Shown piece by piece: positions 17,602 through 61,869 of a stretch of DNA of 64,000 bases. The stretch is from a virus, in IMG/VR virus record IMGVR_UViG_3300044632_001398, positions 1 through 64,000 of that record; one strand, written 5' to 3'. The position numbers were made by a program, and so were the translations under genes. The notes beneath the pieces were generated by a model. It had not been told where the DNA came from, made no database searches, and was given only the letters and a program-made list of their open reading frames with translations. Position 1 is the first letter of the stretch; the number at the start of each line of letters is the position of its first letter.

Positions 17602-18887
17602 TGAATTTTCTTTTTGAGGATACAAATAGACTTTCTAATTTCACATCAAACAAAGATATAAACAAATCAGGTATACCAAGATTTGCAATATCACCTCTTT
17701 TTACATCAACACAAATATATGTTAATGCTAATGGTAAAAGTAAAGAATTTGGTATTTTTCCAGCAAGCGATGAATTAGATTCTTATGTAATAGCATCTTG
17801 TGTAAATCATAGTCCAGATGATTGGACTGGTTATGACCCAAAAGTTAAAAGTTTATTTAGTTATTTGAATGAAAAATATTTAAAAGATTTAAGAGAGAAT
17901 AGAGCATTTTTAATGTTAGATCAAAGTCTCGAAGGATATCAAACACCTTGGTTATGGGATTGGTTTCATAGTGAATGTAAACAATGGGAAATTTCACCTA
18001 AAAGAATTATTTATGTTACCGGTAACATGATTGCCGATGATGTATATAAAAATTGGTGTAATGAAAATAGAATAGAAGAAAGAATGAAGGTTATACCATA
18101 CCCACATTTTGAATTAGATATGGGTATGACAACTTGGGGTAGGAATAAAGAAAATAGTGAGAATAAATTACCAAGTTTTTCTCAGAGTATTAATTACAAA
18201 ATTCAAAATCCACATCAGTTAAAAACATACGCATGTTTAAATAAACGAATCAGACCACATAGAGTTTGGTTTTATTATTATTTATATAATTCAGGTTTAT
18301 TGAATGAAGGATTGGTTAGTATGAATGAGTTTGATAAACATTGGTATCATTGGGAAGGTAAATTTTTAGAAGATGGATTATTAGATGAATGCTCAAGTAT
18401 ATTACCATTGTTAGTTTATGAAACTCCTAATAATGTTTTAGACGATAATATATACATCAATAGATTTCCTGAACAGGTTGTAAAGGACACATTTTTCACT
18501 GTTGTTAGTGAAGCTCATTGTGGTGATTCTGATAATACAATGTTTTTAAGTGAAAAAACTTTTAAGGTAATTGGTTGCCGTCACCCATTTTTAATTATGG
18601 GAAACAAAGATAGTATGTCAATGATGAGAAAAATTGGATACAAAACTTTTGATGGATTCATAGATGAAGGATTTGATATATTACCAACACATGAAAGATT
18701 AAATTCAATTATTGAATCAATTAGGAAAACAACAATGATTAAAGATAAGATTGAATGGTATAAATCTATGGAGGATGTTATTGAATATAACTATAGTACA
18801 TTGATTGATAAGTTATTTAGATATCCGGATGCGTTTATTGAAATGAGAGATTATTGTCAAATGACCACCAAACAGAAATTACTATAA
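17601..18887 (+). CDS. GT-B/GT10-like putative glycosyltransferase (paralog family member 1)
   Basis: ACLNKRIRPHR ... VVSE...FLSEKTFK...HPFL...GYKTFD. Confidence 0.55.
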   Translation: MNFLFEDTNRLSNFTSNKDINKSGIPRFAISPLFTSTQIYVNANGKSKEFGIFPASDELDSYVIASCVNHSPDDWTGYDPKVKSLFSYLNEKYLKDLRENRAFLMLDQSLEGYQTPWLWDWFHSECKQWEISPKRIIYVTGNMIADDVYKNWCNENRIEERMKVIPYPHFELDMGMTTWGRNKENSENKLPSFSQSINYKIQNPHQLKTYACLNKRIRPHRVWFYYYLYNSGLLNEGLVSMNEFDKHWYHWEGKFLEDGLLDECSSILPLLVYETPNNVLDDNIYINRFPEQVVKDTFFTVVSEAHCGDSDNTMFLSEKTFKVIGCRHPFLIMGNKDSMSMMRKIGYKTFDGFIDEGFDILPTHERLNSIIESIRKTTMIKDKIEWYKSMEDVIEYNYSTLIDKLFRYPDAFIEMRDYCQMTTKQKLL

Positions 18888-22434: not shown

Positions 22435-23408
22435 TAATTAAATTCGTTTTTGTGTTGTAAATACCAATCGTAAGCTAATCTTAATCCGTTTTGAATAGTT
22501 GTCTTAGCTTCCCAACCTAAATTCTCTTTTATTTTATTTGAATCAATTTTACGAGTTGGAATCATAGACGGTTTTCCTTGAATGTATTCGGTTGGTACCT
22601 CATGTTCTGCAATTGCTCTCATTATTTCTAAAACTTTATTTACTGAGTATACAGTGTTTGAACCAACATTATATGTTTGGAACATTTCAGTCTCATTTTC
22701 CATCACCACTTGTAATGCCTCAACAAAGTCTTCAATGTATAGTAAATCTCTTAATTCGGAACCGTCACCCCACACTGGTATTGGGTCCATTTTATCAGCA
22801 ACCTTACGAATTGTTGCAGGAGTAACGTGACATTTGTTGAAATCATATTTATCGTGAGGGCCAAACAAATTCGCTGGTCTAATCACAGTACATTTCATTG
22901 TTCGTGGTAAGTATTTTGCATACAACTCACATTGAACCTCAGCATATCTCTTCATCCAACCAACAGGAAAATAAACAGGATATGGTTCATCAAATAAGAA
23001 ATCAGTCTCAACTACCGGTTCATCACCTTTAGGTGGATAAACAGTATTAGATGATATAAATACATAATGTTTAACTTCGTTTCTCCAAGCGGAATCAATT
23101 AAAAAATTATTCATTGCCACATTTGGAGTTACGTGAGCTAATGGATCAACTACTGTATCAACAGCATTTGATGTGGAGGCTGCTGCGTGAAATACAACAT
23201 CTACATCTTTAGTTGCATTCATACAACCTTCATAGGTTTGTAAATCGTACTTACTATACTCAACACCATCGTAAGTGGTTCTTACACCTCTTTTATGAAG
23301 GTTTACTCTTAAATTGGTATAACCTTCTTTAATTAATCTTGCGGTTAAGTTTTGACCTACCAATCCCGAACCGCCGGTAATTAATATCTTTGAATTTTTG
23401 TCTATCAT
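22434..23408 (-). CDS. NAD(P)-dependent epimerase/reductase, GDP-fucose synthase-like
   Basis: TGGSGLVG, RPANLFGPHD, VWGDGSELRD. Confidence 0.85.
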   Translation of the reverse strand: MIDKNSKILITGGSGLVGQNLTARLIKEGYTNLRVNLHKRGVRTTYDGVEYSKYDLQTYEGCMNATKDVDVVFHAAASTSNAVDTVVDPLAHVTPNVAMNNFLIDSAWRNEVKHYVFISSNTVYPPKGDEPVVETDFLFDEPYPVYFPVGWMKRYAEVQCELYAKYLPRTMKCTVIRPANLFGPHDKYDFNKCHVTPATIRKVADKMDPIPVWGDGSELRDLLYIEDFVEALQVVMENETEMFQTYNVGSNTVYSVNKVLEIMRAIAEHEVPTEYIQGKPSMIPTRKIDSNKIKENLGWEAKTTIQNGLRLAYDWYLQHKNEFN

Positions 23409-25105
23409 ATTATATTTTGTTTTTTTAAGTCTTCTAATCTATATTCCTCCTCAACTAATTTTTTATCGTGAACGAAATCAATATAAGTTAATCGTCTAAA
23501 ATCATTTTTTACCTTTTCCACCGAATGATCAGGATTATTTAAAGTGAAATCTAATAATGCAAAATTACCTAAAGTTGGTTTTACATAATTAACTTCATTA
23601 TTTTCATTAATTCTCAACTCCCCACCACCATTATTATAATCATTTTCGTCGGATAAGTAAATTAAAATAACACAATATCTTTTTCTATTTTCCCCATCAT
23701 TGTGAGGTGTTATATGATCACCATTTTCATAAATTGTATATGCGTCTTGGTGATTGTAGTTACCTCTTAATATTGGATATATTTTACCTATGTAATCCTC
23801 AATTACAAAACGAAGATAATCCCTACCTTTTTGTAAATCATCATTAAAATGTTTACTTTCCCACCATCTTTGTACCTCTAATCCTTCTTTTTCTTTTATA
23901 TAATTTTCTAATCCCGAAATTTCATCTGATGTGTAATGTAACTTTTTTTCCCAACTATCAATTTGATTTTTTTCGGCAATTAATTTATAATCAAATCTAT
24001 AACTAAAATTACTATTATCTTTAGTAGATTCTTTTATACCATTAAGAATCTCTTTAAACTTTTCCATATCGGGTATAAGTTCCTCAATTTTACCAAAGTA
24101 ATAACCACCGTTAGTTAAAAATTCTCTTACATTAAAATTAACACCTTCAATAGGAAATTGAGTTTTATAATAATAATATGTTTTAGCTAAACCTTCTTCA
24201 AAAGGTGTTGTAGGTAGTAAACCATATTTTTCTTGTTTTGTGGTATCCATTTGTCTTCTTAAATCACCATTAGGTTTTGATGTGTCCCATTTAATGGTAA
24301 TATCCTTACCACTTATTTTTACTAACGATTCAATCATAGATTTAATTGTAATCTCAACACCCGAACCAAAATTAATTACATCATGTATACCATCTTCGTA
24401 CATTTTTTTAATTGCAAATGCAACATCTTTTCCATAGACAAAGTCTCTAATTGAACTACCATCACCCCAAGACTCAATTGAATCAGTTGCTTCATGTATT
24501 TTCTTTATTGTTGAAGAAATTACAGTACCACTTCCACTATAATCATCGTAGTCACCATATATATTTGCAGGTCTAATAATGGACCATTTTTCATACCCAT
24601 ATTGTACTTTATATGCCTCTAATAACATCTCGCCAACTCTTTTAGACCAAGACGGAAACCAATCATGTTCAGATGGTAAAGTATTCCAAACGGTATCTTC
24701 AACAAACTTTTCGGCGGGTGAATAAACACCAACAGAACTCACAAAAACTAACCATATATCTTTTAATGCACATTGATTTATTATCTCAGTGTTAATTTTT
24801 ATTGATGGATATAAAAAATCCACTGGTTTAGTTTTTGCTTTAATTGGTGAACCTTTAATACCAAATGTATTAAATACGACATCAAAACTGTATTTTTCAA
24901 ATAATTTTTTAATTGAACCATCTACAGTTAAATCCATTTTTATAAACTCAAATCTATTTTTATATAGATTATTATAGTTAATTTCAGGTTCTTTTAAGTC
25001 AATACCCACAACGAAATAATTAAAATTATCTCTTAATAATTCAGTTAATAGAAATGTACCAACTAAACCTGAACAACCCGTTAACAACACTGTTTTTCTC
25101 TCCAT
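23405..25105 (-). CDS. Fusion: GDP-fucose-synthase-like SDR + 2OG-Fe(II) oxygenase
   Basis: TGCSGLVG, RPANIYG, WGDGSSIRDF; C-terminal ITPHNDG..LIYL..GGEL..HSVEKV..R. Confidence 0.8.
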   Translation of the reverse strand: MERKTVLLTGCSGLVGTFLLTELLRDNFNYFVVGIDLKEPEINYNNLYKNRFEFIKMDLTVDGSIKKLFEKYSFDVVFNTFGIKGSPIKAKTKPVDFLYPSIKINTEIINQCALKDIWLVFVSSVGVYSPAEKFVEDTVWNTLPSEHDWFPSWSKRVGEMLLEAYKVQYGYEKWSIIRPANIYGDYDDYSGSGTVISSTIKKIHEATDSIESWGDGSSIRDFVYGKDVAFAIKKMYEDGIHDVINFGSGVEITIKSMIESLVKISGKDITIKWDTSKPNGDLRRQMDTTKQEKYGLLPTTPFEEGLAKTYYYYKTQFPIEGVNFNVREFLTNGGYYFGKIEELIPDMEKFKEILNGIKESTKDNSNFSYRFDYKLIAEKNQIDSWEKKLHYTSDEISGLENYIKEKEGLEVQRWWESKHFNDDLQKGRDYLRFVIEDYIGKIYPILRGNYNHQDAYTIYENGDHITPHNDGENRKRYCVILIYLSDENDYNNGGGELRINENNEVNYVKPTLGNFALLDFTLNNPDHSVEKVKNDFRRLTYIDFVHDKKLVEEEYRLEDLKKQNII

Positions 25106-25106
25106 T

Positions 25107-26849
25107 TTATATTATTTTTTTTTCTAAATTTAAATAGTCATCAATTTTAACATCAGTTAACGATTTGAAAAAGTTAACGTCATTTTTTGAATTATATATA
25201 TCAAAAACTTTCTGACGATTTTTATCAAATCTTTCTTTATTGTTTTTATAGAATTCCATAAAGAATTCTTTATTTTCATACATTCGTTTAATCTCCGTAA
25301 TAACTTTATGCATTCTAATACGATTATCTGGTTCATCGTCATAATCATGACTTATTATGTCATCAAACATATCAAATTTAAATCTATCTTTTAGATATTT
25401 TACATGATTATATGAAGCCAAAAATATTGGGAATTGATAAAAGTAAAATGGTTTCATTGATTTTTCGGTGATATGTATTTCTTTGGGTGAATAACATGAT
25501 TCGGTTGTTATATTAACATATGTATCCTCATATGTTTTACGAGCATACACTCTATTCCAAAAAATTTGAGCACCATCACTAGTATCGTCAAACCAAGTTC
25601 TATTTTCTTCGTGTTTACTTTTTTTAATATCAATTTCAGTTAAGAATTTAATCTCATCTTTATATTCATTTTTTTCATCACCTATAAAAAATTCTGAATA
25701 GTAATTTTCATCTTCATGTCTTTTCTCCTGTTTATGATACCATCCCATAATTAAAGACCAATCTATGTGTTCTAAAATTCCATCTTTTTTTAACATACAT
25801 AAAAAAGAATATCTATGAGGCTTTGGACTTCTATTGTGACATAAGAAAAATTCACCGTTTTTTTCGGGTACAAAATTAGGATCACCAAGTTCAACCATAT
25901 GAGTTGATATGAACATAACCAAAAAATCCAAAGAATACATGTTATATAATATATTATGTTTTTGCTTATAATAATCTAATTTTGAATTATTATTTAACAT
26001 ATGGATTCTCCTATAATCTAATCCTTCTTTTATTATTAATTTATTTAAGTATACTACATAATCTTCATATTCAAATTCGTGTTCATTTAACATTATAATA
26101 TGAAAATTTAAACATTTATTGAAACATTCTCTAACCTTAGGAGGTAAAGGTAACGTCTCAACTTCCATAACATGATGATGAAAATTATCGCTGTTAATAA
26201 AATAAAAATAGTTCTCATTAGGATTTTCATAAACCTCATCCAAAACACAATTTCTTATATCATGAAAAAGATTATAGAATCTAAACAAACCAATCACAAT
26301 TTTATATCTATAGTAATCTCTATGTGCTGGATATAAATTTGCGTGATAAGTGGTATAATCATCGGACCATCTATCATAGACAATGTTAAATGTTTTTTTA
26401 TCAAAAACCCTTAGTTGATTCAAATAATCTAATTTTAAATCATTTGGTTTTAAAATAATAACATTCTTAAACGAAATAAATAATTTATCATATACTTTTT
26501 TAAGAGATTCAACAACGTCATATTCATCAAGTAAAATAATTTTAAAATTACTGTCACTTCTAATTCTACCTCTTAAATGTTCGGTAAATGGATAATCTTT
26601 ATCCAATAAATTTTTATTCTCAAAACGACTCAAATCGTTAATATGTGTTAGAAAATAATAATAATTTTCATTTACATTTTCGGCATTGTCATCAACGTTA
26701 GATTTTCTAATGTTTTCAACACCTGATAATTTAAGTAAATTTTGAACATATAAAAATCTCTCATCATCTGAAGGTTTTTTATTGTTCACGTAATGTGAAT
26801 CATCTAAATTATCTAAATTATCACAAATTATATTTAAAAAATAACCCAT
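25107..26849 (-). CDS. GT10-like putative glycosyltransferase with duplicated N-terminal module (member 2)
   Basis: FLCHNRSPKPHR, YVNITTES, ITEKSMKPFYFYQFPIFL; start revised to MGYFL. Confidence 0.55.
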   Translation of the reverse strand: MGYFLNIICDNLDNLDDSHYVNNKKPSDDERFLYVQNLLKLSGVENIRKSNVDDNAENVNENYYYFLTHINDLSRFENKNLLDKDYPFTEHLRGRIRSDSNFKIILLDEYDVVESLKKVYDKLFISFKNVIILKPNDLKLDYLNQLRVFDKKTFNIVYDRWSDDYTTYHANLYPAHRDYYRYKIVIGLFRFYNLFHDIRNCVLDEVYENPNENYFYFINSDNFHHHVMEVETLPLPPKVRECFNKCLNFHIIMLNEHEFEYEDYVVYLNKLIIKEGLDYRRIHMLNNNSKLDYYKQKHNILYNMYSLDFLVMFISTHMVELGDPNFVPEKNGEFFLCHNRSPKPHRYSFLCMLKKDGILEHIDWSLIMGWYHKQEKRHEDENYYSEFFIGDEKNEYKDEIKFLTEIDIKKSKHEENRTWFDDTSDGAQIFWNRVYARKTYEDTYVNITTESCYSPKEIHITEKSMKPFYFYQFPIFLASYNHVKYLKDRFKFDMFDDIISHDYDDEPDNRIRMHKVITEIKRMYENKEFFMEFYKNNKERFDKNRQKVFDIYNSKNDVNFFKSLTDVKIDDYLNLEKKII

Positions 26850-39850: not shown

Positions 39851-40288
39851 ATGATATATTGGTTAACAGGACAACCTGCGGCAGGTAAAACAACATTGGC
39901 AACTTGGATTCAATCAAGTTTCCCTAATAAGTCTATAATTGTGGATGGTGATGATATTAGAGAGATATTCGTAAATAAAGACTATTCAGAGGAAGGAAGG
40001 AAGAAAAACATTGAAAAGGCTCAGATTTTGGCTAAGTTCCTTCATCATAAGGGTTATATTGTTATAGTATCGTTAGTTTCACCATACAGAGATCAAAGGG
40101 AAGAGTTTAAAAACGAAATGGGGGAAAACCTAAGGGAAATCTATGTACATACCACCCAAGATAGAGGACGTAATCATTTTCACGTTGAGGGGTATGAACC
40201 ACCTTTGGAAAACTATTTTGACTGCGACACTACCGATAGTAGTGAATATCACACATTTTTAGAATTAAGAAGAAAATTAAATATATAA
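39851..40288 (+). CDS. cysC: Adenylyl-sulfate (APS) kinase
   Basis: WLTGQPAAGKTT, DGDDIR, SLVSPYR, YEPP. Confidence 0.9.
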   Translation: MIYWLTGQPAAGKTTLATWIQSSFPNKSIIVDGDDIREIFVNKDYSEEGRKKNIEKAQILAKFLHHKGYIVIVSLVSPYRDQREEFKNEMGENLREIYVHTTQDRGRNHFHVEGYEPPLENYFDCDTTDSSEYHTFLELRRKLNI

Positions 40289-40291
40289 TAT

Positions 40292-40654
40292 ATGAGTAAG
40301 AAATATGCGATGTATGTGGGTCGTTGGCAAAATTGGCATAAGGGTCACGAATGGTTAATTAACCAACAATTAGAAAAGGGTAAAGATGTGTGGGTAGCAA
40401 TTAGAAATGTTCCAACTGATGAAAATAACCCTAAAACTGCTCAAGAAGTGATGATGGAATTAGCGGGAGAACCGTTTTTTATGGAAAATTCACATAGAAT
40501 TAACATATCTATTATACCGGACATTGAAAGTATAAATTATGGTCGTGGAGTGGGTTATGATGTTATTTATCATGAACCACCACCTGAGGTAGAAGTAATA
40601 AGTGGAACTAAAATCCGTAATGGGGAAATGAATTCAGATGGTAGTAGAGCGTAA
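40292..40654 (+). CDS. HxGH nucleotidyltransferase (possible minimal ATP sulfurylase)
   Basis: GRWQNWHKGH and ISGTKIR; adjacent to cysC. Confidence 0.7.
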   Translation: MSKKYAMYVGRWQNWHKGHEWLINQQLEKGKDVWVAIRNVPTDENNPKTAQEVMMELAGEPFFMENSHRINISIIPDIESINYGRGVGYDVIYHEPPPEVEVISGTKIRNGEMNSDGSRA

Positions 40655-40853
40655 ACGACATATAGCTAAAACCATTTCATATCGTATTGTAAGTACCCTA
40701 ATTGGGTTCATTATAATGTGGTGGGTAAGTGGATCGATTAAGGTTGGGGCGGCATTTGGGGTAGCGGAATTGATATATAAACCCATTCAATACTATCTAC
40801 ACGAAAGAATTTGGTATAAATGGATAAAATTTGGACTAAAAGATAAAAAATAA
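40638..40853 (+). CDS. DUF2061-like small membrane protein
   Basis: RHIAKTISYR...YYLHERIW. Confidence 0.8.
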   Translation: MVVERKRHIAKTISYRIVSTLIGFIIMWWVSGSIKVGAAFGVAELIYKPIQYYLHERIWYKWIKFGLKDKK

Positions 40854-40854
40854 G

Positions 40855-40862
40855 TATTTATA
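40855..40862 (+). promoter_or_regulatory. Class I TATTTATA motif
   Basis: In the 27-nt gap before ORF 40881. Confidence 0.55.
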
Positions 40863-40880: not shown

Positions 40881-42329
40881 ATGAAATCAGTATTAATTGC
40901 AAGTGATTTAATCAAAGATTTAAATGGTAATATAAAAGTAATTGAAACGAACACAAACGCGTCAGTATCTATAAATTGGAATTTATATGATTTTGCAAAT
41001 TTGCAAGATTTTATCCAATCTAATAATTTTACAGAAGTTAATGGTATCGTTCCTCAAGTGGATAAACCATTTTCGGCTAAAATAAAAGAAATATGTGATT
41101 CAATTGGGATAACCTACGTTGAACATATAACAGTTAATGGTTCGATAACCGTTCCATTTATTGAAGATAATGAATCTACATTAATTATTAGACTTTCATA
41201 TGACACCACTGCAGTAGTGGACGACCAATATTGTAGAGACAAATTTGCATTACAAAAAGTAATTCACAATGAATCATTTGGTGTAAAAACATATATTCCG
41301 GTAGAAGTGGATGGAGTTACAATAGATGATTTTACCGAAATGGAAGACTTTGTTTATACTAACGACATACCAAATTTTATTGTAAAAAGTAGATATCCAA
41401 ATTATGATAAAGAAGTATATCCAAAGTTATACAAAGTAGAAAATTTAACACAATTAAATGAATTAAAATCTACAATTGAATCGGATTATTATTTACAAGA
41501 ATTTATTCAATCGGAATTAATAGATGGTAGAAGAAACATTATTAGAAGTTTAGATTTATTATATGGTTCTAATTTGGATACATTAAATATAGGTGGTTAT
41601 ACTGTTTTAAACCAAATTGAAGAAACAATATGGAATAATACATGGGATGAGAATAATATGTTGGCCAAAAAAGATAGGCCAAAATATATAACACATACGG
41701 CAGGACATGACGATTCTTCACATGAATATGTTTATGATGTTGATCAGGATGTTGCAATGATGGATGGTAGTAGAAAAACATTTTATTCATTAATATTAGG
41801 TGATTCAATTAAATCATTACACATTCAAGGATTGGACTTAGATGAAAGTACATATCAATTACAATCATGGACTGGTACTTATTCGGATTTTATTGAAAAT
41901 TTCAGTATTATATCCTCAGCTGTTGTTGCTACCAGAGAATCTCAACCCGTATCTCAATTATTTATTAAAATAACAATGGATGATGGAACTGAGTGGGATG
42001 ATGTAAAACTTTCACCATTATTGGTTAAGGATGGTGATGTTATTAAATTTAAAAGAGTAAATGATATGGCTATTGGTGATGTTATTATCACATATAATTT
42101 TGAATCATCGGAAGTAGAATTAAAAACCATTCAAAATATGGAAATTATATTTAAAGAAAACCAAATATTGGGTTCTTTAGATGTTGAACCGGTGGATTTG
42201 TATCTACCTTTTGTATCTGCAAATTCAACAGTAATTCAACACAATCGATGCACCAAGGGATGTGCAAGTAATGCCTGTTTCGATTCTTTTGCATGTGGTA
42301 ATTGTAGTTTTTACGTTTGTAATAAATAA
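40881..42329 (+). CDS. Circularly permuted ATP-grasp + Hint domain + C-terminal six-Cys peptide (putative self-processing precursor)
   Basis: N-terminal SDL..D.NGNIKVIETNTN (D..ExN), RDKF, FIVKSRYP, YLQEFI; Hint VAMMDGSRK...LILGDSI, V.DMAIGD, LDVEP...IQHN; then RCTKGCASNACFDSFACGNCSFYVCNK. Confidence 0.75.
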   Translation: MKSVLIASDLIKDLNGNIKVIETNTNASVSINWNLYDFANLQDFIQSNNFTEVNGIVPQVDKPFSAKIKEICDSIGITYVEHITVNGSITVPFIEDNESTLIIRLSYDTTAVVDDQYCRDKFALQKVIHNESFGVKTYIPVEVDGVTIDDFTEMEDFVYTNDIPNFIVKSRYPNYDKEVYPKLYKVENLTQLNELKSTIESDYYLQEFIQSELIDGRRNIIRSLDLLYGSNLDTLNIGGYTVLNQIEETIWNNTWDENNMLAKKDRPKYITHTAGHDDSSHEYVYDVDQDVAMMDGSRKTFYSLILGDSIKSLHIQGLDLDESTYQLQSWTGTYSDFIENFSIISSAVVATRESQPVSQLFIKITMDDGTEWDDVKLSPLLVKDGDVIKFKRVNDMAIGDVIITYNFESSEVELKTIQNMEIIFKENQILGSLDVEPVDLYLPFVSANSTVIQHNRCTKGCASNACFDSFACGNCSFYVCNK

Positions 42330-42351: not shown

Positions 42352-42465
42352 ATGGCACTTTTAGATAAAGAACAAATAGAATTAACAGTTGCAACAAAAT
42401 TGCAAATTTCATCAGTTATTACAAGTATGGTAACTCTTATTAAGAGTGATATATTAAGTTCATAA
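42352..42465 (+). CDS. 37-aa amphipathic peptide
   Basis: Unlisted ORF MALLDKEQIELTVATKLQISSVITSMVTLIKSDILSS with A-rich upstream region. Confidence 0.55.
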   Translation: MALLDKEQIELTVATKLQISSVITSMVTLIKSDILSS

Positions 42466-42505: not shown

Positions 42506-42805
42506 ATGCCAATAGACGTAAAAGAAATTACCAAAGCTTGGATAGATTCTTACTTTGGAACAATCGAACAAAAAAACAGAGCAAACGATAGAAATGAAAT
42601 CTGTCAACAATGCCCATCTTTAAAAGAATTTTTTAAACAACGCAAAAACATTTCCGTTCAACAATGTGGTGAATGTGGGTGTCCTATTTCTAAAAAAATA
42701 TGGTCATATAAATTTAATCCTTGCCCATTAGGTAAATGGGAAGATGTTGATAAAAAACACAAAAATCTATTTGATACTGAATTGAAAACTAAAAATACGA
42801 TTTAA
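42506..42805 (+). CDS. Cys-rich Zn-binding protein (DUF6171-like)
   Basis: R.EICQQCP...CGECGCP...CPLGKW. Confidence 0.75.
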   Translation: MPIDVKEITKAWIDSYFGTIEQKNRANDRNEICQQCPSLKEFFKQRKNISVQQCGECGCPISKKIWSYKFNPCPLGKWEDVDKKHKNLFDTELKTKNTI

Positions 42806-43171
42806 ATGAATGTTATAAATACAAACCCAAAACTATATATTAAATACATCGATAATATAAAGGGATTTGGTGTTTTTACTAATCAAAAAATTAAAAAGGG
42901 TGAATTAATTGAACAATGTTATTCCCTTTGTATTGATACTACGGTTAAAGGGTTTGATGCATATTGGTTTAGGTATAGAGGAGATAGTACATTGTTACCA
43001 CTTGGATTTGGTACGATTTATAATCATAGTAATACTCCAAATACTATATGGAAAATTATTGATGAAAACAAAAGAATTATAAACTTTTATGCAATTGATG
43101 ATATTGATATAGATTGTGAACTTTGTCATAATTACGGACCAGGGTATTTAAAACATATCCAATTAATATGA
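42806..43171 (+). CDS. SET-domain methyltransferase
   Basis: KGFGVF...IKKGELI, YNHS.TPN, A..DI....EL.HNYG. Confidence 0.85.
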   Translation: MNVINTNPKLYIKYIDNIKGFGVFTNQKIKKGELIEQCYSLCIDTTVKGFDAYWFRYRGDSTLLPLGFGTIYNHSNTPNTIWKIIDENKRIINFYAIDDIDIDCELCHNYGPGYLKHIQLI

Positions 43172-43701
43172 TTTATCAAAAAAAAATATTTTCTAAAGAG
43201 GAATGTGATATAATATTACAATTATCTGACACATTGGAATTTAGAGATGGAAAAACTAGATATAGTAAAGATAATATGCATGCCGACTTTGATGAATACT
43301 GGGTTTCGGATAATGAAAATGCTATATGGTTTATGGATAGAATAAAAGTGTTTGCCGAAAAAGAATTAAAAGTAAAATTAAAAAAGTTAAAATCCGATGT
43401 TGCAATTCTAAAATATAAAGAAGGACAGGGTATTGATATGCATATAGATTATAATCCCAAAAATGTGGATGTTAGAATGTATACTGTTGGTGTAATGCTG
43501 AATACCGAATGGGAAGGAGGTGAATTTTTTATAAAGGATGTATCTAATGGAGAAGAAACGATGCTAATCAAAGAAATAGGAAATACATATATTTTTGATG
43601 CATTTTCTCCTCATATAGTTAATAAAGTAACAAAGGGAGTAAGATGTGTATTGATTACTCATATATTAAATTCAGAAATTAAAAAAACAGATTTAATATG
43701 A
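43168..43701 (+). CDS. 2OG-Fe(II) oxygenase (prolyl-hydroxylase-like)
   Basis: FSKEEC, HID, EGGEF, HIV.KVTKGVR. Confidence 0.85.
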   Translation: MIYQKKIFSKEECDIILQLSDTLEFRDGKTRYSKDNMHADFDEYWVSDNENAIWFMDRIKVFAEKELKVKLKKLKSDVAILKYKEGQGIDMHIDYNPKNVDVRMYTVGVMLNTEWEGGEFFIKDVSNGEETMLIKEIGNTYIFDAFSPHIVNKVTKGVRCVLITHILNSEIKKTDLI

Positions 43702-44285
43702 TTTATCAAGAAAAAATATTTTCTAAAGAGGAATGTGAAAGAATATTATCATATACCAACATATATACTGATTTAGTGTTTAGAAGTAAAGAACCAAATA
43801 TTGATTTTGAAAAAAGAAGGGTAGAGCATATTACAAAACACACTAATGGTAAAAATATCGGAAAATTTTTTAATGTTTGGGATATTCGTCATGATGAAGA
43901 AACACATTGGATGTTTGAAAAAATAATAAAATGGTTTTCTAATGTTTCAAAAATAGAACACAATTCAGATGGGTGGCCTGGCGGTTGTTCATTACATAAA
44001 TACTCAAAGGGGGACTCATTTCAAAAACATATAGATTTAAATCAATCTTTCCCAGATAGAAGATGGAATTTAGGTATTCAATTAAACGACTCATATACTG
44101 GTGGTGAATATATATGTTATGATAATAACGATAATAAGATAATATTAAGTAAAGAAATTGGAACAGCAATAGCTTATAATTCTACAACTGAACATGAAAT
44201 AACGGAAATATTATCTGGTGAAAGGTGGTCTATTGTAATGCCAATAAGTAATAAAGTAATTTTAGAAAAAAAATCAATAATATGA
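43698..44285 (+). CDS. 2OG-Fe(II) oxygenase (prolyl-hydroxylase-like)
   Basis: FSKEEC, HID, YTGGE, HEITEILSGER. Confidence 0.85.
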   Translation: MIYQEKIFSKEECERILSYTNIYTDLVFRSKEPNIDFEKRRVEHITKHTNGKNIGKFFNVWDIRHDEETHWMFEKIIKWFSNVSKIEHNSDGWPGGCSLHKYSKGDSFQKHIDLNQSFPDRRWNLGIQLNDSYTGGEYICYDNNDNKIILSKEIGTAIAYNSTTEHEITEILSGERWSIVMPISNKVILEKKSII

Positions 44286-44905
44286 TTTTAGAAAAAATAG
44301 AAATAGATAAAAATATTATTGTATATAAAGGAATAGTTGGTTTATTTGAATCCTTTAATAGAGAAGAATTTATTAAAAAAATAAAATATATTCAACATTT
44401 ATATCCGGATTTTACTAATTCTATGAATGAAAAATCACCTGGTAAACAATATCCAATTTTAGTAAATTTAGAAGAGACTAATTTTATTATTAATAAAGTA
44501 AAAACATCATTAAAAAATGAAATAAATACTCCAAGTGAATGTGTTATAAACAGTTGGGTTTATGTTAGTAGTAATAAAAATAAATATTCAGGATATCATT
44601 CACATGAAAGTACAGGAGTACATCAAAATAATAAAACCGTTATGTTTGATACATCACACACATTCACATATTATGTTCAAATGCCAAATAATTTAAAAAA
44701 TGATGATGGATATTTATACTTTAAAACAAAAGATGGTACGGAATTTGGATTTTTACCAAAAGAAGATGAGGTTTGGATATTCCCAGGAGATTTAGAACAT
44801 GATGTTAAAACCAATACATCATCTACAAATGAAAGAATTGTAATTGCAAGTAATATGCATTTTTTTGATTATAATGATATTAAATTAGAAAAAAGTATAT
44901 TATAA
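44282..44905 (+). CDS. Putative 2OG-Fe(II) oxygenase (HxH type)
   Basis: SWVY, HSH, TYYVQMP, IFPGDLEH.V, RIVIA. Confidence 0.75.
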   Translation: MILEKIEIDKNIIVYKGIVGLFESFNREEFIKKIKYIQHLYPDFTNSMNEKSPGKQYPILVNLEETNFIINKVKTSLKNEINTPSECVINSWVYVSSNKNKYSGYHSHESTGVHQNNKTVMFDTSHTFTYYVQMPNNLKNDDGYLYFKTKDGTEFGFLPKEDEVWIFPGDLEHDVKTNTSSTNERIVIASNMHFFDYNDIKLEKSIL

Positions 44906-45624
44906 TGTCTATTTTAATAAATAATAACTTAATATGGGTATCTATACCAAGAAATGCAAGTCATTCTATTGAAAAGGCTATTGTAAATTCGGATGTAGAG
45001 ATAAAACATTGGAATAGATTGTATACAACAGAAAGTATTTTTAATAGAAATTGGTTGCATCAACATGTAAATAAAAACCAATTACAAATTGCATTTGGTA
45101 ATAAAGAAACGTTTTGTATAAAAAGAGATTTCAGTAATAGATGGATATCTTCACTGGAACACTTTTGGGATGTGTGTATTAAACACCACAAATTAACTCC
45201 TATTATTAACTATGAAGACATAGATAATGATTTTATATACAATACTTTTAATACTACATTCAGTAATATTTTATATAATGATAATACGGGATTAATAAAA
45301 TGTACATCAATGTTAGTAAAACAATCTATGGAAGATGTATTAAATAATAATACTAGGTATGAGACTCAAAGACTTTCACACATTTTTGCATCACAAAATA
45401 AATATTTAGATGGGGAAAAATGTACATATGAATTTGACATAAAAGAATTGGATAAATTTAAAACATTTTATGAAAATAGATATGATGTAAAAATAGATAT
45501 ACCTCATGAAAATGTATCACCAAAAAAAATAAATAAAATAATATTAGATGATGATTTAAAAAATCATTTATGGGAAGTGTTTGAAAAACCATTTGCAAAA
45601 GATAAAAAATATAATTTATTATAA
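44905..45624 (+). CDS. Sulfotransferase (Sulfotransfer_2-like)
   Basis: WVSIPRNASHSI (5'-PSB) and RD..NRWISS (3'-PB) motifs. Confidence 0.7.
   Translation: MSILINNNLIWVSIPRNASHSIEKAIVNSDVEIKHWNRLYTTESIFNRNWLHQHVNKNQLQIAFGNKETFCIKRDFSNRWISSLEHFWDVCIKHHKLTPIINYEDIDNDFIYNTFNTTFSNILYNDNTGLIKCTSMLVKQSMEDVLNNNTRYETQRLSHIFASQNKYLDGEKCTYEFDIKELDKFKTFYENRYDVKIDIPHENVSPKKINKIILDDDLKNHLWEVFEKPFAKDKKYNLL
45551..45612 (+). repeat. Copy 1 of a ~62-bp direct repeat (copy 2 at 46869-46931)
   Basis: atgatt(t)taaaaaatcatttatgggaagt[g/a]tttgaaaaaccatttgcaaaagataaaaaatat. Confidence 0.9.
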
Positions 45625-45653
45625 TACCCCCACCAACAACACAACTAAAATAA

Positions 45654-46226
45654 ATGTTATTTAATAATTTTTACAAAACAACCTACGATTTTAATTGGGA
45701 AGTATTAGAACCCATTTTAGAAAAAATGGTCAGTATAAAAAATCAAGACTATTTAGAAAAGGGTGATGTATTAACTTCTTTTAAAAATAAAATAAGTCCA
45801 TTAAATTTACCTGAACTTAAAGACTTTTATAGTTTTATATCACCAATTTATAGTGATGTATTAATTAATAAATGGAACTATCCAAAAGAAAATGAATATT
45901 TTATTAGTAATTCTTGGGTATCAAAATATGGAAATGGTGGTTTTATTGAAGAACACAATCATACCAACGTAATTGCAGTAATATGTGCATATTTACAAAT
46001 TCCTGAAAATTCATCAAATATTTTATTTAGAGATCCAAATTATGATACAAAAATAAAATTATCAACAAAGGATGATAATTGGTTATGGAAAGAAATAGAA
46101 TCCAAAACAAACGAAATACTTATATTTGAAGGTGGGTGTTATCATAAAACTAATCCAAATAATAGTTTAATTCCTCGTTGGGTATTAACTACAAATATAA
46201 CAAAAAAAAATAAAAGTATAATATGA
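45654..46226 (+). CDS. Putative 2OG-Fe(II) oxygenase (HxH type)
   Basis: SWVSKY, HNH, F.DP, LIFEG..YH.T.PN, RWVL. Confidence 0.75.
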   Translation: MLFNNFYKTTYDFNWEVLEPILEKMVSIKNQDYLEKGDVLTSFKNKISPLNLPELKDFYSFISPIYSDVLINKWNYPKENEYFISNSWVSKYGNGGFIEEHNHTNVIAVICAYLQIPENSSNILFRDPNYDTKIKLSTKDDNWLWKEIESKTNEILIFEGGCYHKTNPNNSLIPRWVLTTNITKKNKSII

Positions 46227-46248
46227 AATTAAACAAAATAAACACACT

Positions 46249-46872
46249 ATGAAAGGGAATGAACAAATAGAGGTTTTTGAAGAAAAAATTGAAATTCAAA
46301 ATACAAAAAACGATGGTAACAATGTCATTATGCACATTGGTGAAAAATATTTAATGACTAAACTTGCAGAAATTGTTACAAAAAACGGAGGTGACATATT
46401 AGAAATTGGATTTGGAATGCATTTATCTGCCGATGCTATACAATCAAATCCAAATGTGACATCACATACCATAATAGAAATTCATCCGGTTCAATATGAA
46501 AGAGCATTAGAATGGGCAAAGTTACAAAAAATAAAAACAACAGTTATATTAGGTGATTGGATTGAATTATTACCATTGACTAATATGAAGTTTGATGGAG
46601 TATTACATGATACACATTTAGACCCGAATATACCTAAATTTTTAGATTATATAGTAGATAATTGTAAAAAAGGTACAATTGTGGGTTTTTTTGAATATCA
46701 AAAATTTGATTTAAGATTTAATGGATATAGAGTTACTATACCAAAAGAAGACTGGGAAACTATTCCATATAAAAATAACATATATTACAAAGATAATCAG
46801 CCTGAATTAAAATATACTACATTTAATGGTGATGATTTTTATAGTGAAAAAAAAATAAATAAACTATTATGA
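46249..46872 (+). CDS. Class I SAM methyltransferase (GAMT/Rmt2-like)
   Basis: GGDILEIGFGM, HTIIEIHP, GDW, FDGVLHDT. Confidence 0.8.
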   Translation: MKGNEQIEVFEEKIEIQNTKNDGNNVIMHIGEKYLMTKLAEIVTKNGGDILEIGFGMHLSADAIQSNPNVTSHTIIEIHPVQYERALEWAKLQKIKTTVILGDWIELLPLTNMKFDGVLHDTHLDPNIPKFLDYIVDNCKKGTIVGFFEYQKFDLRFNGYRVTIPKEDWETIPYKNNIYYKDNQPELKYTTFNGDDFYSEKKINKLL

Positions 46873-46940
46873 TTTTAAAAAATCATTTATGGGAAGTATT
46901 TGAAAAACCATTTGCAAAAGATAAAAAATATTTAATTTAA
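46869..46940 (+). pseudogene. 23-codon relic duplicating the 3' end of the sulfotransferase gene
   Basis: MILKNHLWEVFEKPFAKDKKYLI*, ATGA-coupled to the upstream stop. Confidence 0.7.
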
Positions 46941-46941
46941 A

Positions 46942-47508
46942 ATGGTAATCACTATTATCGCAGAACCAAGAACTGGGTCAACTAATTTAGGTAAATGGTT
47001 TCTGAACAATAAAGAATTCACAGTATTATTTGAACCATTAAATAAAACTAGTACAAATTATAAAAAAGGTGAATCAGTTTATCAATGGAAATATAATACT
47101 AATCATTTTTTAATTAAGGAAATATATACACCAGATATATGTTTAACAGAATTGATACAATTTTCAGATAAAATCATAATACTTTATAGAGAAAATAAAA
47201 AAGAACAATTGGAATCTTGGTTAGTTGCCAGAGAAACCAATAATTGGCATGTAAAATGGAGTCATAATATGACAAGTGTGACAAATGGTAAAGAAAAAAT
47301 AAAATATTTTAATTCACTAACAAATACATTCAAATTAAATTATATAAATAATCCTAATTATTTTAAAATTTCATATGAAGAATTATATTATAGTAATGGA
47401 TTTCAAAAAATAATAGATTATATAAATTTAGATTGTGTAAAAAATGAAAATTTTCCACAAGGTCAAAAATATAGAATATATGATAGTAAAACAACAAGTA
47501 TTATTTAG
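46942..47508 (+). CDS. Sulfotransferase (Stf0-like)
   Basis: AEPRTGSTNL, LFEP, LYREN..EQLESW, ISYEEL. Confidence 0.75.
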   Translation: MVITIIAEPRTGSTNLGKWFLNNKEFTVLFEPLNKTSTNYKKGESVYQWKYNTNHFLIKEIYTPDICLTELIQFSDKIIILYRENKKEQLESWLVARETNNWHVKWSHNMTSVTNGKEKIKYFNSLTNTFKLNYINNPNYFKISYEELYYSNGFQKIIDYINLDCVKNENFPQGQKYRIYDSKTTSII

Positions 47509-47977
47509 TAAAGAAGAATGTGAATTGATTATAACTCTACCAAAAACAAATCAACAATATTGGGAATCAAAGGATAGAAGTTATAATTCACTTGTACTGC
47601 AGTATAACGAAAATACAGAGTGGATATTTAATAGATTGAAAAATTTTTTTGAATTAGAAACGGAAATAAAGATTTTTAAATTAAAACCATACATACATTT
47701 TCATAAATATGTAAGTGGGGATTGGTTTGGTAGACATAACGATATTAGAGGTGACAGAATTTCTGCAGTGGGTGTGTTACTGAATGATGATTTTAATGGT
47801 GGAGATTTCAAATTATACAATCCAACAGAAGTGATTTTAAATAAAGTGGTTGGAAACACATACATATTTGATGTTACAATTGACCACGAAATAACACCAA
47901 TTTTAAATGGTGAGAGATATTCATTACTTTGGTTTTTAGAAAGAGACAATATTAAATTTAATAATAAATTGATATAA
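47480..47977 (+). CDS. 2OG-Fe(II) oxygenase (prolyl-hydroxylase-like)
   Basis: FSKEEC, HND, FNGGDF, HEITPILNGER; start revised to MIVKQ. Confidence 0.85.
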   Translation: MIVKQQVLFSKEECELIITLPKTNQQYWESKDRSYNSLVLQYNENTEWIFNRLKNFFELETEIKIFKLKPYIHFHKYVSGDWFGRHNDIRGDRISAVGVLLNDDFNGGDFKLYNPTEVILNKVVGNTYIFDVTIDHEITPILNGERYSLLWFLERDNIKFNNKLI

Positions 47978-47978
47978 A

Positions 47979-48494
47979 ATGGATGATATTATACAATATA
48001 AAATAACTAAAGAAAAATTCATTAAAATTGAACATAAATCTCATTATAAATTAAAATATGTAGATTTAAATAATTATTTAGATTATACCGAAGATTTTAA
48101 TATAATAATAGATTTATTGCATAAACAATTAAAATGGGACGGTATACCAACATTGGAAGAATGTTATCAAAGATTTAATTCTAATTCATTTTGTTTATTG
48201 TTTTATTATAATGAAAAATGTATAGGTTGGAATTGGGGTAATCCAAATGTAACTATTAATTGGATTGACATTGATAAAAAATTAAATAATAATGAATTGT
48301 ATTTAGGTGGATGTTTTGTTTCTAAATTAGTTGAAAGACCGGCAGACGCTGGTATTCAAAATTATAATATGTTTTTTGATTATTGTTTAAATATTTTAAA
48401 TCCAAATGTAATGTATGGATATTGTGACAATTGGAATAAGGCTGCAATAAGAATCAATATAAGTAATGGATGGGAACAGTTTAATTTTTTATAA
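47979..48494 (+). CDS. GNAT-fold acetyltransferase-like protein
   Basis: CIGWNW, YLGGCFVS, CDNWNKAAIR...NGW. Confidence 0.6.
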   Translation: MDDIIQYKITKEKFIKIEHKSHYKLKYVDLNNYLDYTEDFNIIIDLLHKQLKWDGIPTLEECYQRFNSNSFCLLFYYNEKCIGWNWGNPNVTINWIDIDKKLNNNELYLGGCFVSKLVERPADAGIQNYNMFFDYCLNILNPNVMYGYCDNWNKAAIRINISNGWEQFNFL

Positions 48495-53544: not shown

Positions 53545-54768
53545 ATGAATATATTTGATCCATTTGTCTCAGGTAATCTCTCCGTATCAGGTTCGGTAAA
53601 TATATCGGGCTCAATGACAGTAGGAGGAACGATTAACGCCACTATTAGTGGTACGACATCAGAAGCACTAAACTCACAAAAATTAAATAACCAAGAGTCG
53701 TCCTATTACGCTATTACGGGAAGTAACTTATTTAAGGCGAACCAAACAATTAGTGGTTCGATAATCCCCGCCGTTACTAATGCTTACGATTTGGGTGACG
53801 CAACACATTGGTGGAAGGACATCTACGTATCAACAGGGTCCATCTTCATTGGTGGAATTAAAGCTATCAGTACAAACTCCGATGGTACAATACAAGTAGG
53901 TACTCAAGTTGTACAAACTTCAGCGAGTTTGGCTTTAGTAGGTCTTCCAGTTCCTCCAACAGGTTCTGCAGGATCAAGTCAAAGTACATTAGTAGGTAGT
54001 CAAAATATTACAGGTAGTCAAGCCATCACAGGTAGCATGTCTGTTAGTGGTAGTATGGTTGTAACTGGTTCATTGTTCATTAATGGAACATCATATACCG
54101 CAGCAACATCAGGAACATCTGGTTCTTCAGGTACTTCAGGTTCTAGTGGTTCATCAGGTACTTCAGGTTCTAGTGGTTCATCAGGTACTTCAGGTTCTAG
54201 TGGTTCATCAGGTACTTCAGGTTCTAGTGGTTCAAGTGGAACATCTGGTTCTTCAGGATCATCTGGTTCTTCAGGATCATCTGGTACAACAACGGTAACA
54301 AATGCGTCCGCTGATCGTGTAATGACAAGTGAAGGTGGAGTAACTATAAATGGTGAGGCAAACTTAACATTTAACGGAACAACTTTATATGTAAACGGAG
54401 CGTTAGGTGTAGGAACATCAACACCAACAACAACAGGTTTGATTAGAGCAACAAACGACGTTATTGCTTATTTTTCATCTGATGAAAGATTAAAAGAAAA
54501 TTTTGAACCAATTGTAAATTCTTTAGAAAAACTACAACAAATTAATGGTTATAGTTTTGATTGGGTTCCTATGGAAGGTATTCACGAAAATGAAGGTCAC
54601 GATATCGGTGTTAAAGCACAAGAAATTGAGGCTGTTTTACCTGAATTAGTTACAACAAGAGATAATGGTTATAAAGCCGTGAAGTATGAAAAATTAGTAG
54701 CTTTATTGATTGAAACAAATAAAGAATTATTAAAGAGAGTTGAAGCTTTAGAATCTAAAATAAAATAG
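53545..54768 (+). CDS. Tail fibre with Gly-Xaa-Ser tract and peptidase S74 intramolecular chaperone
   Basis: YDLGD.T..W..IY, about 20 GxS triplets, SSDERLKEN...GVKAQEIE.VLPELV..V.YEKLVALLIE..KEL. Confidence 0.9.
   Translation: MNIFDPFVSGNLSVSGSVNISGSMTVGGTINATISGTTSEALNSQKLNNQESSYYAITGSNLFKANQTISGSIIPAVTNAYDLGDATHWWKDIYVSTGSIFIGGIKAISTNSDGTIQVGTQVVQTSASLALVGLPVPPTGSAGSSQSTLVGSQNITGSQAITGSMSVSGSMVVTGSLFINGTSYTAATSGTSGSSGTSGSSGSSGTSGSSGSSGTSGSSGSSGTSGSSGSSGTSGSSGSSGSSGSSGTTTVTNASADRVMTSEGGVTINGEANLTFNGTTLYVNGALGVGTSTPTTTGLIRATNDVIAYFSSDERLKENFEPIVNSLEKLQQINGYSFDWVPMEGIHENEGHDIGVKAQEIEAVLPELVTTRDNGYKAVKYEKLVALLIETNKELLKRVEALESKIK
54127..54234 (+). repeat. 4 x 27-bp perfect tandem repeat (SGTSGSSGS)
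   Basis: tcaggtacttcaggttctagtggttca at 54127, 54154, 54181, 54208. Confidence 0.9.
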
Positions 54769-61629: not shown

Positions 61630-61869
61630 TTATGCTCTTTGTCCTCCATTCCAATCTGTTGTTATTTGTCTGACTATATTTTCATCTATTTCTCTTGCAA
61701 TTTCTTCTGACAACATTCTTGTTAATTCAATTTCAGTATTTAATCCTATATTCGTAATTAATTCATCTGCCAAATCAGGTCTCCATTGTGCTCGTAGTGT
61801 CCTAACGATATTTTGAATACCTTCTGATTGAATTGTTATCCCATGAAAAAATCTAAACTCTCTAATCAT
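61630..61869 (-). CDS. 79-aa protein resembling an internal fragment of T4-like major capsid protein gp23
   Basis: RTLRAQWRPDLADEL...GLNTEIELTRMLSEEIAREIDENIVRQI vs recalled gp23 pattern RkLkA.w..ElaqDl.a.hGlDaeaEL..iLs.EI..EI.reii; start revised to MIREF. Confidence 0.65.
   Translation of the reverse strand: MIREFRFFHGITIQSEGIQNIVRTLRAQWRPDLADELITNIGLNTEIELTRMLSEEIAREIDENIVRQITTDWNGGQRA

Follow-up and report, generated by a model that had tools for sequence, protein, structure and literature searches.

We propose, with a probability of roughly one half, that eleven consecutive genes in a viral DNA tailor a small cysteine-rich peptide linked to a Hint-domain protein encoded just upstream, and that they form the variable tailoring arm of a module conserved in jumbo T4-like phages. 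The genes lie at positions 42506-48494 of the 64,000-nucleotide stretch analyzed here (the window), which covers the initial 64 kb of a 74.3-kb IMG/VR record (IMGVR_UViG_3300044632_001398) with an estimated completeness of 22%; the G+C content of the window is about 28%. The same locus is also present in larger related records of 310, 251, and 176 kb, two of which encode a T4-type Gp23 capsid protein, and the DNA therefore comes from a jumbo T4-like phage, of which it is a fragment. The module has as its fixed core a ligase-like/Hint fusion that terminates in the hypervariable Cys-rich peptide, a micro-protein of 24-49 amino acid residues, and a six-Cys protein; around this core we find sulfate activation genes, a sulfotransferase (A), a shuffled set of 2-oxoglutarate (2OG)-Fe(II) oxygenases of two types (Oxy3 and Oxy5) together with a second sulfotransferase (B), and sometimes a SET-domain protein, a guanidinoacetate N-methyltransferase (GAMT)-like protein, and a GNAT acetyltransferase-like protein.

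An earlier reading of the DNA letters (hereafter the original prediction) had described eleven largely coupled genes with no glycosyltransferase or sugar-nucleotide gene among them, and a sulfate-activation module providing 3′-phosphoadenosine 5′-phosphosulfate (PAPS) immediately upstream. All eleven open reading frames (ORFs) are indeed present on the + strand, the interval contains no glycosyltransferase or sugar-nucleotide gene, and a kinase for adenosine 5′-phosphosulfate (APS) is found in the upstream module. The Hint gene, the micro-ORF, and the eleven genes of the cassette are as follows, where "tagged" denotes the common C-terminal tail described below, and P4H prolyl 4-hydroxylase:

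40881-42329, + strand: ligase-like/Hint fusion with a C-terminal 27-residue six-Cys peptide; the core (42246-42326) follows an invariant His-Asn
42352-42465, + strand: conserved 37-residue micro-ORF between the Hint and six-Cys genes; a gap ORF is found in relatives
42506-42805, + strand: six-Cys protein of 99 residues, tagged; conserved Cys, possible zinc ribbon
42806-43171, + strand: minimal SET-domain lysine methyltransferase, tagged; Pfam SET 2.7e-10
43168-43701, + strand: 2OG-Fe(II) oxygenase of the P4H/PiuC type (Oxy3), tagged; Pfam PF13640 1.5e-7
43698-44285, + strand: 2OG-Fe(II) oxygenase of the Oxy3 type, tagged; Pfam PF13640 5.3e-10
44282-44905, + strand: 2OG-Fe(II) oxygenase of the TIGR02466/Oxy5 type, tagged; PHROG 81 1.7e-11
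44905-45624, + strand: sulfotransferase A, assigned at the level of fold, tagged; AlphaFold model with a mean confidence (pLDDT) of 81
45654-46226, + strand: 2OG-Fe(II) oxygenase of the Oxy5 type, tagged, within a two-gene insert; Pfam PF13759 3e-9
46249-46872, + strand: GAMT-like class I methyltransferase, tagged, within the same insert; PDB 1p1b
46942-47508, + strand: sulfotransferase B, assigned at the level of motifs, tagged; both PAPS-binding motifs conserved
47480-47977, + strand: 2OG-Fe(II) oxygenase of the Oxy3 type, tagged; Pfam PF13640 9.6e-7
47979-48494, + strand: GNAT-like protein, untagged; language-model lead

Linkage of the cassette to the Hint gene is well supported. Gene neighborhoods were all taken from IMG/VR loci, in which profile scans with four separate queries (the Hint family, the six-Cys family, sulfotransferase A, and Oxy3) identified 212 loci; all of these belong to a single phage clade, so that the counts that follow are not independent events and shared ancestry inflates co-occurrence. 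When the 10 kb around each of 61 distinct Hint proteins are considered, the six-Cys gene is present in 98% of loci (at a median gap of 159 nt), Oxy3 in 95% (with a mean of 2.5 copies), sulfotransferase A in 87%, sulfotransferase B in 74%, the nucleotidyltransferase-like gene and DUF2061 of the upstream module in 61%, Oxy5 in 59%, a carbamoyltransferase in 51%, SET in 25%, GNAT in 20%, and the GAMT-like methyltransferase in 8%. Conversely, a Hint gene is found in the locus of 69 of 74 distinct sulfotransferase A proteins, with no exception having at least 4 kb on both sides, and in the locus of 67 of 75 distinct six-Cys proteins, with 2 clear exceptions; most of the Hint-less cases in these two families are at contig ends. 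The Hint locus is the sole site of cassette-type Oxy3 and sulfotransferase A genes in the records of 251 and 176 kb. Gene order varies between lineages, the six-Cys gene changes sides, and Hint protein identity falls to about 30%. Whether the cassette occurs independently of what the original prediction called an ATP-grasp-Hint gene can thus be answered largely in the negative, as searches starting from the six-Cys protein, sulfotransferase A, or Oxy3 nearly always found Hint where the flanks sufficed, with few exceptions.

The module is scarce outside these loci. The Hint gene has 0 matches in 50,697 GenBank phage records, where PHROG 61 and 81 oxygenases are common; neither the six-Cys gene nor sulfotransferase A has a match in GenBank phages, and Oxy3 has only matches of about 27% identity there. 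A pattern scan of 185,579 prokaryote genomes found no relative of the Hint gene, and the single-protein pattern scan gave 0 matches. The commonness of the oxygenases in GenBank phage records lacking the Hint gene is one reason to ask whether the eleven genes might be independent accessory enzymes, host-directed or metabolic, that have piled up in a hyperplastic region and act on no common substrate, the Hint linkage being inherited synteny; the dioxygenase arrays of cyanophage Syn9, for which no Hint-peptide gene is reported (PMC2938197), the direct repeats that mark recent cassette shuffling, and the distant Oxy3 relatives that exist as single genes in Hint-less phages would all fit such an origin. 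We nonetheless consider it quite improbable, given that the linkage persists through reordering and about 70% Hint sequence divergence, that the families are found at the Hint locus only in the large records, that the genes are translationally coupled, and that a tail apparently selected at the protein level spans eight unrelated folds and is absent from the Oxy3 proteins of Hint-less loci.

This tail is the second line of evidence for a cassette serving the Hint-linked peptide. Ten of the eleven cassette proteins (all except the GNAT-like protein) have a C-terminus in which aliphatic residues come within a few positions after a basic one; the last two residues are each Ile or Leu in nine of them, and Thr-Ile in the six-Cys protein. 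Within the window it occurs in 9 of 10 tagged genes vs 6 of 61 other genes (p 6e-7). Counted over unique homologs, it is found in 52/75 six-Cys proteins, 63/74 sulfotransferase A, 51/54 sulfotransferase B, 155/179 Oxy3, 37/48 Oxy5, 13/14 SET, 6/6 GAMT-like, and 30/46 members of the 35894 family; the corresponding figures are 0/25 for APS kinase, 1/42 for the nucleotidyltransferase-like protein, 0/37 for DUF2061, 2/38 for the carbamoyltransferase, 3/22 for glycosyltransferases, 2/14 for GNAT, and 0/69 for the Hint proteins themselves. We rejected the idea that the tail is a by-product of ATGA overlaps between genes, since it is equally frequent (87%) before gene overlaps and before gaps of at least 15 nt. 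This equal frequency, together with the use of several synonymous codons and the avoidance of Val, points to selection on the protein and not on the gene junction, and the tail thus appears to be under protein-level selection.

The tail is also restricted to Hint loci. In a search with the Oxy3 profile, 61 of 77 distinct Oxy3 proteins from Hint loci were tagged vs 6 of 69 from Hint-less loci, and all six of the latter were on contig-edge fragments of cassettes; where Hint-less loci extended at least 4 kb on both sides, 0 of 17 Oxy3 proteins were tagged. The Oxy3 proteins of Hint-less loci belong to a distant single-gene subfamily ending in GKQFK. The contigs carrying this subfamily (L161-L208) have neither a Hint gene nor a cassette. 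In two other loci (L210 and L214), the Hint gene is followed by three Oxy3 genes with a different tail, GD.F[VK].

Short C-terminal address tags are familiar from the peroxisomal targeting signal PTS1 (Ser-Lys-Leu) and the MuA-type tail recognized by ClpX. The cassette tail resembles these in being a basic-then-aliphatic C-terminus of 3-5 residues on unrelated proteins, but differs in its phage operon context, and no reader protein was seen here; it may act in docking, in degradation, or in some other way. We advance only tentatively the possibility of a hub-and-tag system in which at least eight unrelated folds dock by their tails on the ligase-Hint precursor, and the peptide is modified and then self-released, so that recognition would reside on the enzymes and not on a leader. 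In the main reading proposed at the outset, i) the enzymes would be produced together with the fusion protein or shortly ahead of it; ii) the common Lys-x-x-(Ile/Leu)-(Ile/Leu) tail would recruit them to a partner common to all, for which the conserved body of the fusion is the simplest candidate; iii) the Cys-rich peptide would be hydroxylated, sulfated, and methylated, the candidate residues being Lys, Tyr, Ser/Thr, and Asn/Asp; and iv) the Hint domain would then release the peptide by cutting after His-Asn.

The third line of evidence concerns the peptide. The 252 homologs of ORF 40881 share an invariant HN and six invariant terminal Cys residues, and the segment after His-Asn is hypervariable, 27-49 residues long, Gly- and Pro-rich, and always has 6 or 8 Cys. 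Among 53 short cores, all have at least one Lys (exactly one in 37) and 52 have a Tyr. In one sub-lineage (L015, L018, L023, L038, and L066) a canonical Hint/intein domain follows the Cys-rich segment (Pfam Intein_splicing, Hint, and PT-HINT), and in another (L129, L069, L064, and relatives) a longer Cys-rich part precedes a weak match to Peptidase_S74 beginning at profile position 1. This bracketing of the segment by self-processing domains in relatives argues that the Cys-rich segment is a product that is cut out by putative cleavage.

It is very improbable, in our view, that the ligase-like domain makes a small non-ribosomal amide from amino acids which the cassette then tailors, the Cys-rich tail being a regulatory or metal-binding appendage. 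The GAMT-like methyltransferase does resemble a small-molecule enzyme, the carbamoyltransferase, GDSL hydrolase, APS kinase, and sulfotransferase belong to types that typically tailor small molecules, and operons combining ATP-grasp ligases with dioxygenases have been proposed to make peptide-derived metabolites (PMC2938197). Such a product would leave unexplained the invariant HN, the bracketing by self-processing domains, and hypervariability with an even number of Cys, and the GAMT-like gene is present in just 8% of loci. We also know of no small-molecule role for SET domains. A saxitoxin-like small-molecule pathway was rejected because the match is confined to the tailoring classes, scaffold enzymes not being seen.

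The gap between the Hint and six-Cys genes is itself conserved, since in 37 of 37 loci examined it holds an ORF of 24-49 residues with a common hydrophobic pattern, whose stop codon is in many lineages about 20 nt ahead of the six-Cys start. Hint gene, micro-ORF, and six-Cys gene abut in most lineages, leaving no space for a separate promoter. A variant locus is seen in the 310-kb record (G001, loci L039/L042), which is 93% complete and encodes a Hint protein with Ser-Asn for His-Asn and an atypical 162-residue tail; this 310-kb genome has no sulfotransferase A and one weak Oxy3 match (E 9e-5) far from the Hint locus, and the changed Hint protein and missing cassette may represent a natural co-loss.

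The cassette enzymes have intact catalytic residues. The SET protein scores 41.1 bits against a Pfam cut-off of 22.4, has PBCV-1 vSET as its nearest solved protein (E 3.9e-11), and displays both the NHS..PN and EL...Y motifs of its class in translation. The three Oxy3 genes all exceed the Pfam cut-off (30-41 bits), and the HxD...H iron triad and 2-oxoglutarate Arg (H111, D113, H166, and R176) are invariant among 20 sequences; the Oxy3 profile matches PiuC, prolyl 3- and 4-hydroxylases (among the latter those of PBCV-1 and bacteria), and the Mimivirus lysyl hydroxylase L230. For the two Oxy5 genes, PF13759 scores are above the cut-off of 27 for 45654 (37.6) and below it for 44282 (24.3), and both are under the TIGR02466 cut-off; H101, H103, H164, and R175 are invariant in the family. 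The five oxygenases thus represent two Pfam families, with pairwise identities of 28-33% or undetectable. The GAMT-like protein matches guanidinoacetate N-methyltransferase (PDB 1p1b) with E 9e-12.

The remaining assignments are at other levels. Sulfotransferase A has no sequence-family match, and a PDB profile search with it was empty; structural matches to the AlphaFold model are sulfotransferases at all ranks from 1 to 11, with a Z of 8.3 and a root mean square deviation of 3.9 Å over 169 residues for heparan sulfate 2-O-sulfotransferase. Residues P15, S19, S21, R74, and S82 are invariant, preserving P-(R/K)-x-A-S-x-S and R74...S82. In sulfotransferase B, R10, G12, R83, and S92 are invariant and S13 and T14 nearly so; Sulfotransfer_3 is matched weakly by 6 of 15 members, and both PAPS motifs are aligned in a weak match to NodH. 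In the six-Cys family, R29, C36, C54, C57, C59, K64, C73, and W78 are invariant and C33 nearly so; no solved fold corresponded to its model (best Z 3.4), and comparison with BFVD returned matches to uncharacterized phage proteins only. The GNAT-like protein has no Pfam match and is a language-model lead only, with ESM Atlas feature scores of 0.93-0.94 to clusters bearing Acetyltransf_1. Neither a JmjC-type enzyme nor a halogenase was seen in the cassette, a difference from the published arrays discussed below. The gene classes first named for the cassette stand with differing strength: SET, Oxy3, and the GAMT-like methyltransferase are assigned by sequence, Oxy5 exceeds the Pfam cut-off in one gene of two, the two sulfotransferases are placed at the fold or motif level only, GNAT is a language-model lead, and the six-Cys fold is unmatched.

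What do these enzymes act on? The original prediction had regarded all of them as classes able to act on peptide side chains, and the cassette does include protein-specific classes, SET and the relatives of P4H and lysyl hydroxylase; both sulfotransferases look most like carbohydrate enzymes. Its further proposal, of a peptide or protein modification cluster acting on the Hint-released peptide, is supported in part, by the linkage to the Hint gene among other evidence; action on the released peptide is what we infer. The Pro-rich virion proteins that it had entertained as alternative targets find no support, there being no Pro-rich ORF in the window. Covariation between cassette and core is weak: SET tracks Lys, with 2.29 Lys per core in loci with SET vs 1.09 in loci without (n=7 and 22, reflecting few independent events), and Oxy3 copy number does not track Pro.

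A gene that favors the carbohydrate alternative lies elsewhere in the window:

23405-25105, - strand: nucleoside diphosphate (NDP)-sugar epimerase/dehydratase fused to a C-terminal Oxy3-type oxygenase, 566 residues, with the same tail; Pfam Epimerase 1.5e-33 and PF13640 7.4e-9

Its oxygenase domain and the oxygenases of the cassette are no more than distant relatives. The tail is also present on its neighbors at 25107-26849 and 17601-18887. This tagged fusion favors a reading in which the cassette would decorate virion-surface glycans or Ser/Thr-rich fibers, placing hydroxyl, sulfate, and methyl groups on sugars or on side chains of the fibers, as one arm of a 60-kb glycan factory occupying the window; the Hint-peptide protein would then be another coat component or substrate and not the only target. 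This reading, which we judge unlikely but consider a serious competitor, also draws on a window full of sugar-nucleotide enzymes, glycosyltransferases, and a carbamoyltransferase; on the similarity of both sulfotransferases to carbohydrate sulfotransferases; on a locus with APS kinase, sulfotransferase A, and a family 9 glycosyltransferase (GT9) and no Hint gene; on GT4-FkbM and GT9 genes downstream of the cassette in several lineages; and on a promoter-like motif (TATTTATA, described below) common to the Hint gene and fiber genes. Against it, the cassette tracks the Hint gene and not the glycosyltransferases; the glycosyltransferases and carbamoyltransferase lack the cassette tail; the Oxy3 profile matches protein hydroxylases; and the SET protein is expected to be protein-specific, SET domains being known to us solely as protein lysine methyltransferases. 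The fiber repeats, too, lack Pro and Lys. In two fiber-like proteins of the window (1008-3644 and 53545-54768) the collagen-type repeats are purely (G-T/S-S)n, and the action of P4H enzymes on collagen-like fibers was rejected for this reason. The fiber-like protein at 53545-54768 has a Peptidase_S74 chaperone domain and is encoded directly after a GT9 heptosyltransferase-like gene. It may be speculated that a decorated glycopeptide would reconcile the peptide and glycan readings.

We wish to stress that, in addition to the shared ancestry of the loci, several observations weigh against a cassette devoted to the Hint-linked peptide: i) ATP-grasp was not confirmed in the Hint family by Pfam or PDB profile searches, the N-terminal part of ORF 40881 being identified as ATP-grasp only by a language-model lead; ii) Oxy3 copy number is independent of the Pro, Lys, Asn, and Asp counts of the core; iii) the core in the window has no Pro, yet three P4H-like Oxy3 genes follow it; iv) the nearest enzymes are carbohydrate enzymes, namely heparan-sulfate sulfotransferases for sulfotransferase A (by structure) and NodH for sulfotransferase B; v) the tail is not specific to peptide chemistry, as it is also carried by the epimerase/Oxy3 fusion and by further enzymes of the window's glycan part; vi) the six-Cys gene occurs without Hint in three lineages, two of which have flanks of 4 kb or more on each side and the third shorter ones; and vii) the APS kinase-sulfotransferase A-GT9 locus has no Hint gene within 7 kb upstream.

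The enzyme mix fits a theme of peptide-modifying arrays developed by Iyer et al. 2010, who described tandem arrays of unrelated dioxygenases in cyanophage Syn9, as well as bacterial operons in which dioxygenases, sulfotransferases, PAPS synthesis, and methyl- or acetyltransferases are combined with tail-collar or collagen-like proteins (PMC2938197). Peptide modification was proposed for both types of array, with tail-collar or collagen-like Gly-rich proteins as candidate substrates (PMC2938197). Like the Syn9-type arrays, taken here as at least three dioxygenases of different families in one array of a T4-like phage, the cassette has five oxygenases of two families in one same-strand array, and relatives with Gp23; sulfotransferases, sulfate activation, and methyl- and acetyltransferases are added to these. 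Unlike the cassette, none of the published arrays was reported to include a ligase-Hint-peptide gene, micro-ORF, six-Cys protein, or common C-terminal tail (PMC2938197), and a literature search found no description of any of these four elements.

The locus can also be compared with clusters for ribosomally synthesized peptides with post-translational modifications (RiPPs), which include the graspetides and also the borosins, whose precursors are fused to their enzyme. As in RiPP clusters, a hypervariable gene-encoded core lies beside conserved tailoring enzymes, the conserved non-core part could be a recognition element, and the core would be released by proteolysis; a variable core of 27-49 residues follows HN, and the cassette adjoins it in 87-98% of loci. 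Unlike RiPP clusters, release would here be effected in cis by the Hint domain, and recognition may be via enzyme tails, not a peptide leader; no RiPP recognition element (RRE) domain was seen here. Among viral protein-modifying enzymes, PBCV-1 vSET is nearest to the SET protein, and PBCV-1 P4H and Mimivirus L230 are matched by the Oxy3 profile. The substrates of vSET, viral P4H, and L230 are histones or Pro/Lys-rich collagen-like proteins, unlike the collagen-like repeats of the window phage, which have no Pro or Lys.

If our reading is correct, the locus would encode a phage-borne pathway of peptide maturation whose precursor unites an enzyme, a self-cutting domain, and the core in one protein; enzymes would be recruited in an unusual way through a shared tail; a set of hydroxylation, sulfation, and methylation better known from the secreted peptides of animals and plants would be found in a phage; and the oxygenase arrays of aquatic T4-like phages would acquire a first testable role. 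The tail might find practical use as a handle by which enzymes are brought to a substrate, and a hub-and-tag system would offer phages a quickly re-programmable route to decorated, possibly disulfide-rich peptides.

The tight packing claimed for the cassette holds for 7 of its 10 junctions, the values being in order 0, -4, -4, -4, -1, +29, +22, +69, overlap, and +1 nt. The last oxygenase probably starts at 47480, not 47444, as the N-terminus read from 47480 matches its paralogs; with this start the overlap with the sulfotransferase B gene is 29 nt. All three loose junctions surround genes 45654 and 46249, and this 1.3-kb segment (Oxy5 and GAMT-like) is bracketed by a 58-nt direct repeat (45555-45612 and 46874-46931, 98% identical) which represents the 3′ end of gene 44905, duplicated just past gene 46249. 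The bracketing repeat identifies the two genes as a recent insertion, and is a footprint of cassette shuffling through recombination at gene ends. The junction and first ~50-56 nt of two Oxy3 paralogs (43163-43218 vs 43693-43748) are 95% identical, and the proteins 28%, which suggests gene conversion or a common recombination linker where genes start.

Two further features lie immediately upstream of the Hint gene:

39851-40853, + strand: sulfate-activation module of APS kinase, a 120-residue nucleotidyltransferase-like protein, and DUF2061, directly upstream of the Hint gene
40855-40862, + strand: promoter-like motif TATTTATA before the Hint gene, its position kept in relatives

The module is identified by Pfam matches to APS_kinase (8e-20) and DUF2061 (1.6e-15), and sulfate-activation genes lie within 10 kb of 36-61% of the 61 distinct Hint genes. 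A scan for sigma-70 promoters and terminators did no better than on shuffled sequence. Of 66 distinct Hint genes, 53 have TATTTATA at 15-35 nt upstream, irrespective of the gene that precedes, and on the opposite strand the motif reads TATAAATA, the T4 late-promoter word; it is rarer in the window overall than in shuffles (12 vs 24), and also precedes fiber-like genes at 937, 5518, 53516, and 54812.

The remainder of the window is dense in sugar-nucleotide enzymes, glycosyltransferases, radical S-adenosylmethionine (SAM) proteins, and fiber-like proteins, and also encodes the carbamoyltransferase and GDSL hydrolase. A small ORF at 61651-61842 (- strand) aligns with just the central part of the Gp23 capsid family (33 bits), and a fragment resembling it is present in a related record (G003, 122409-122513).

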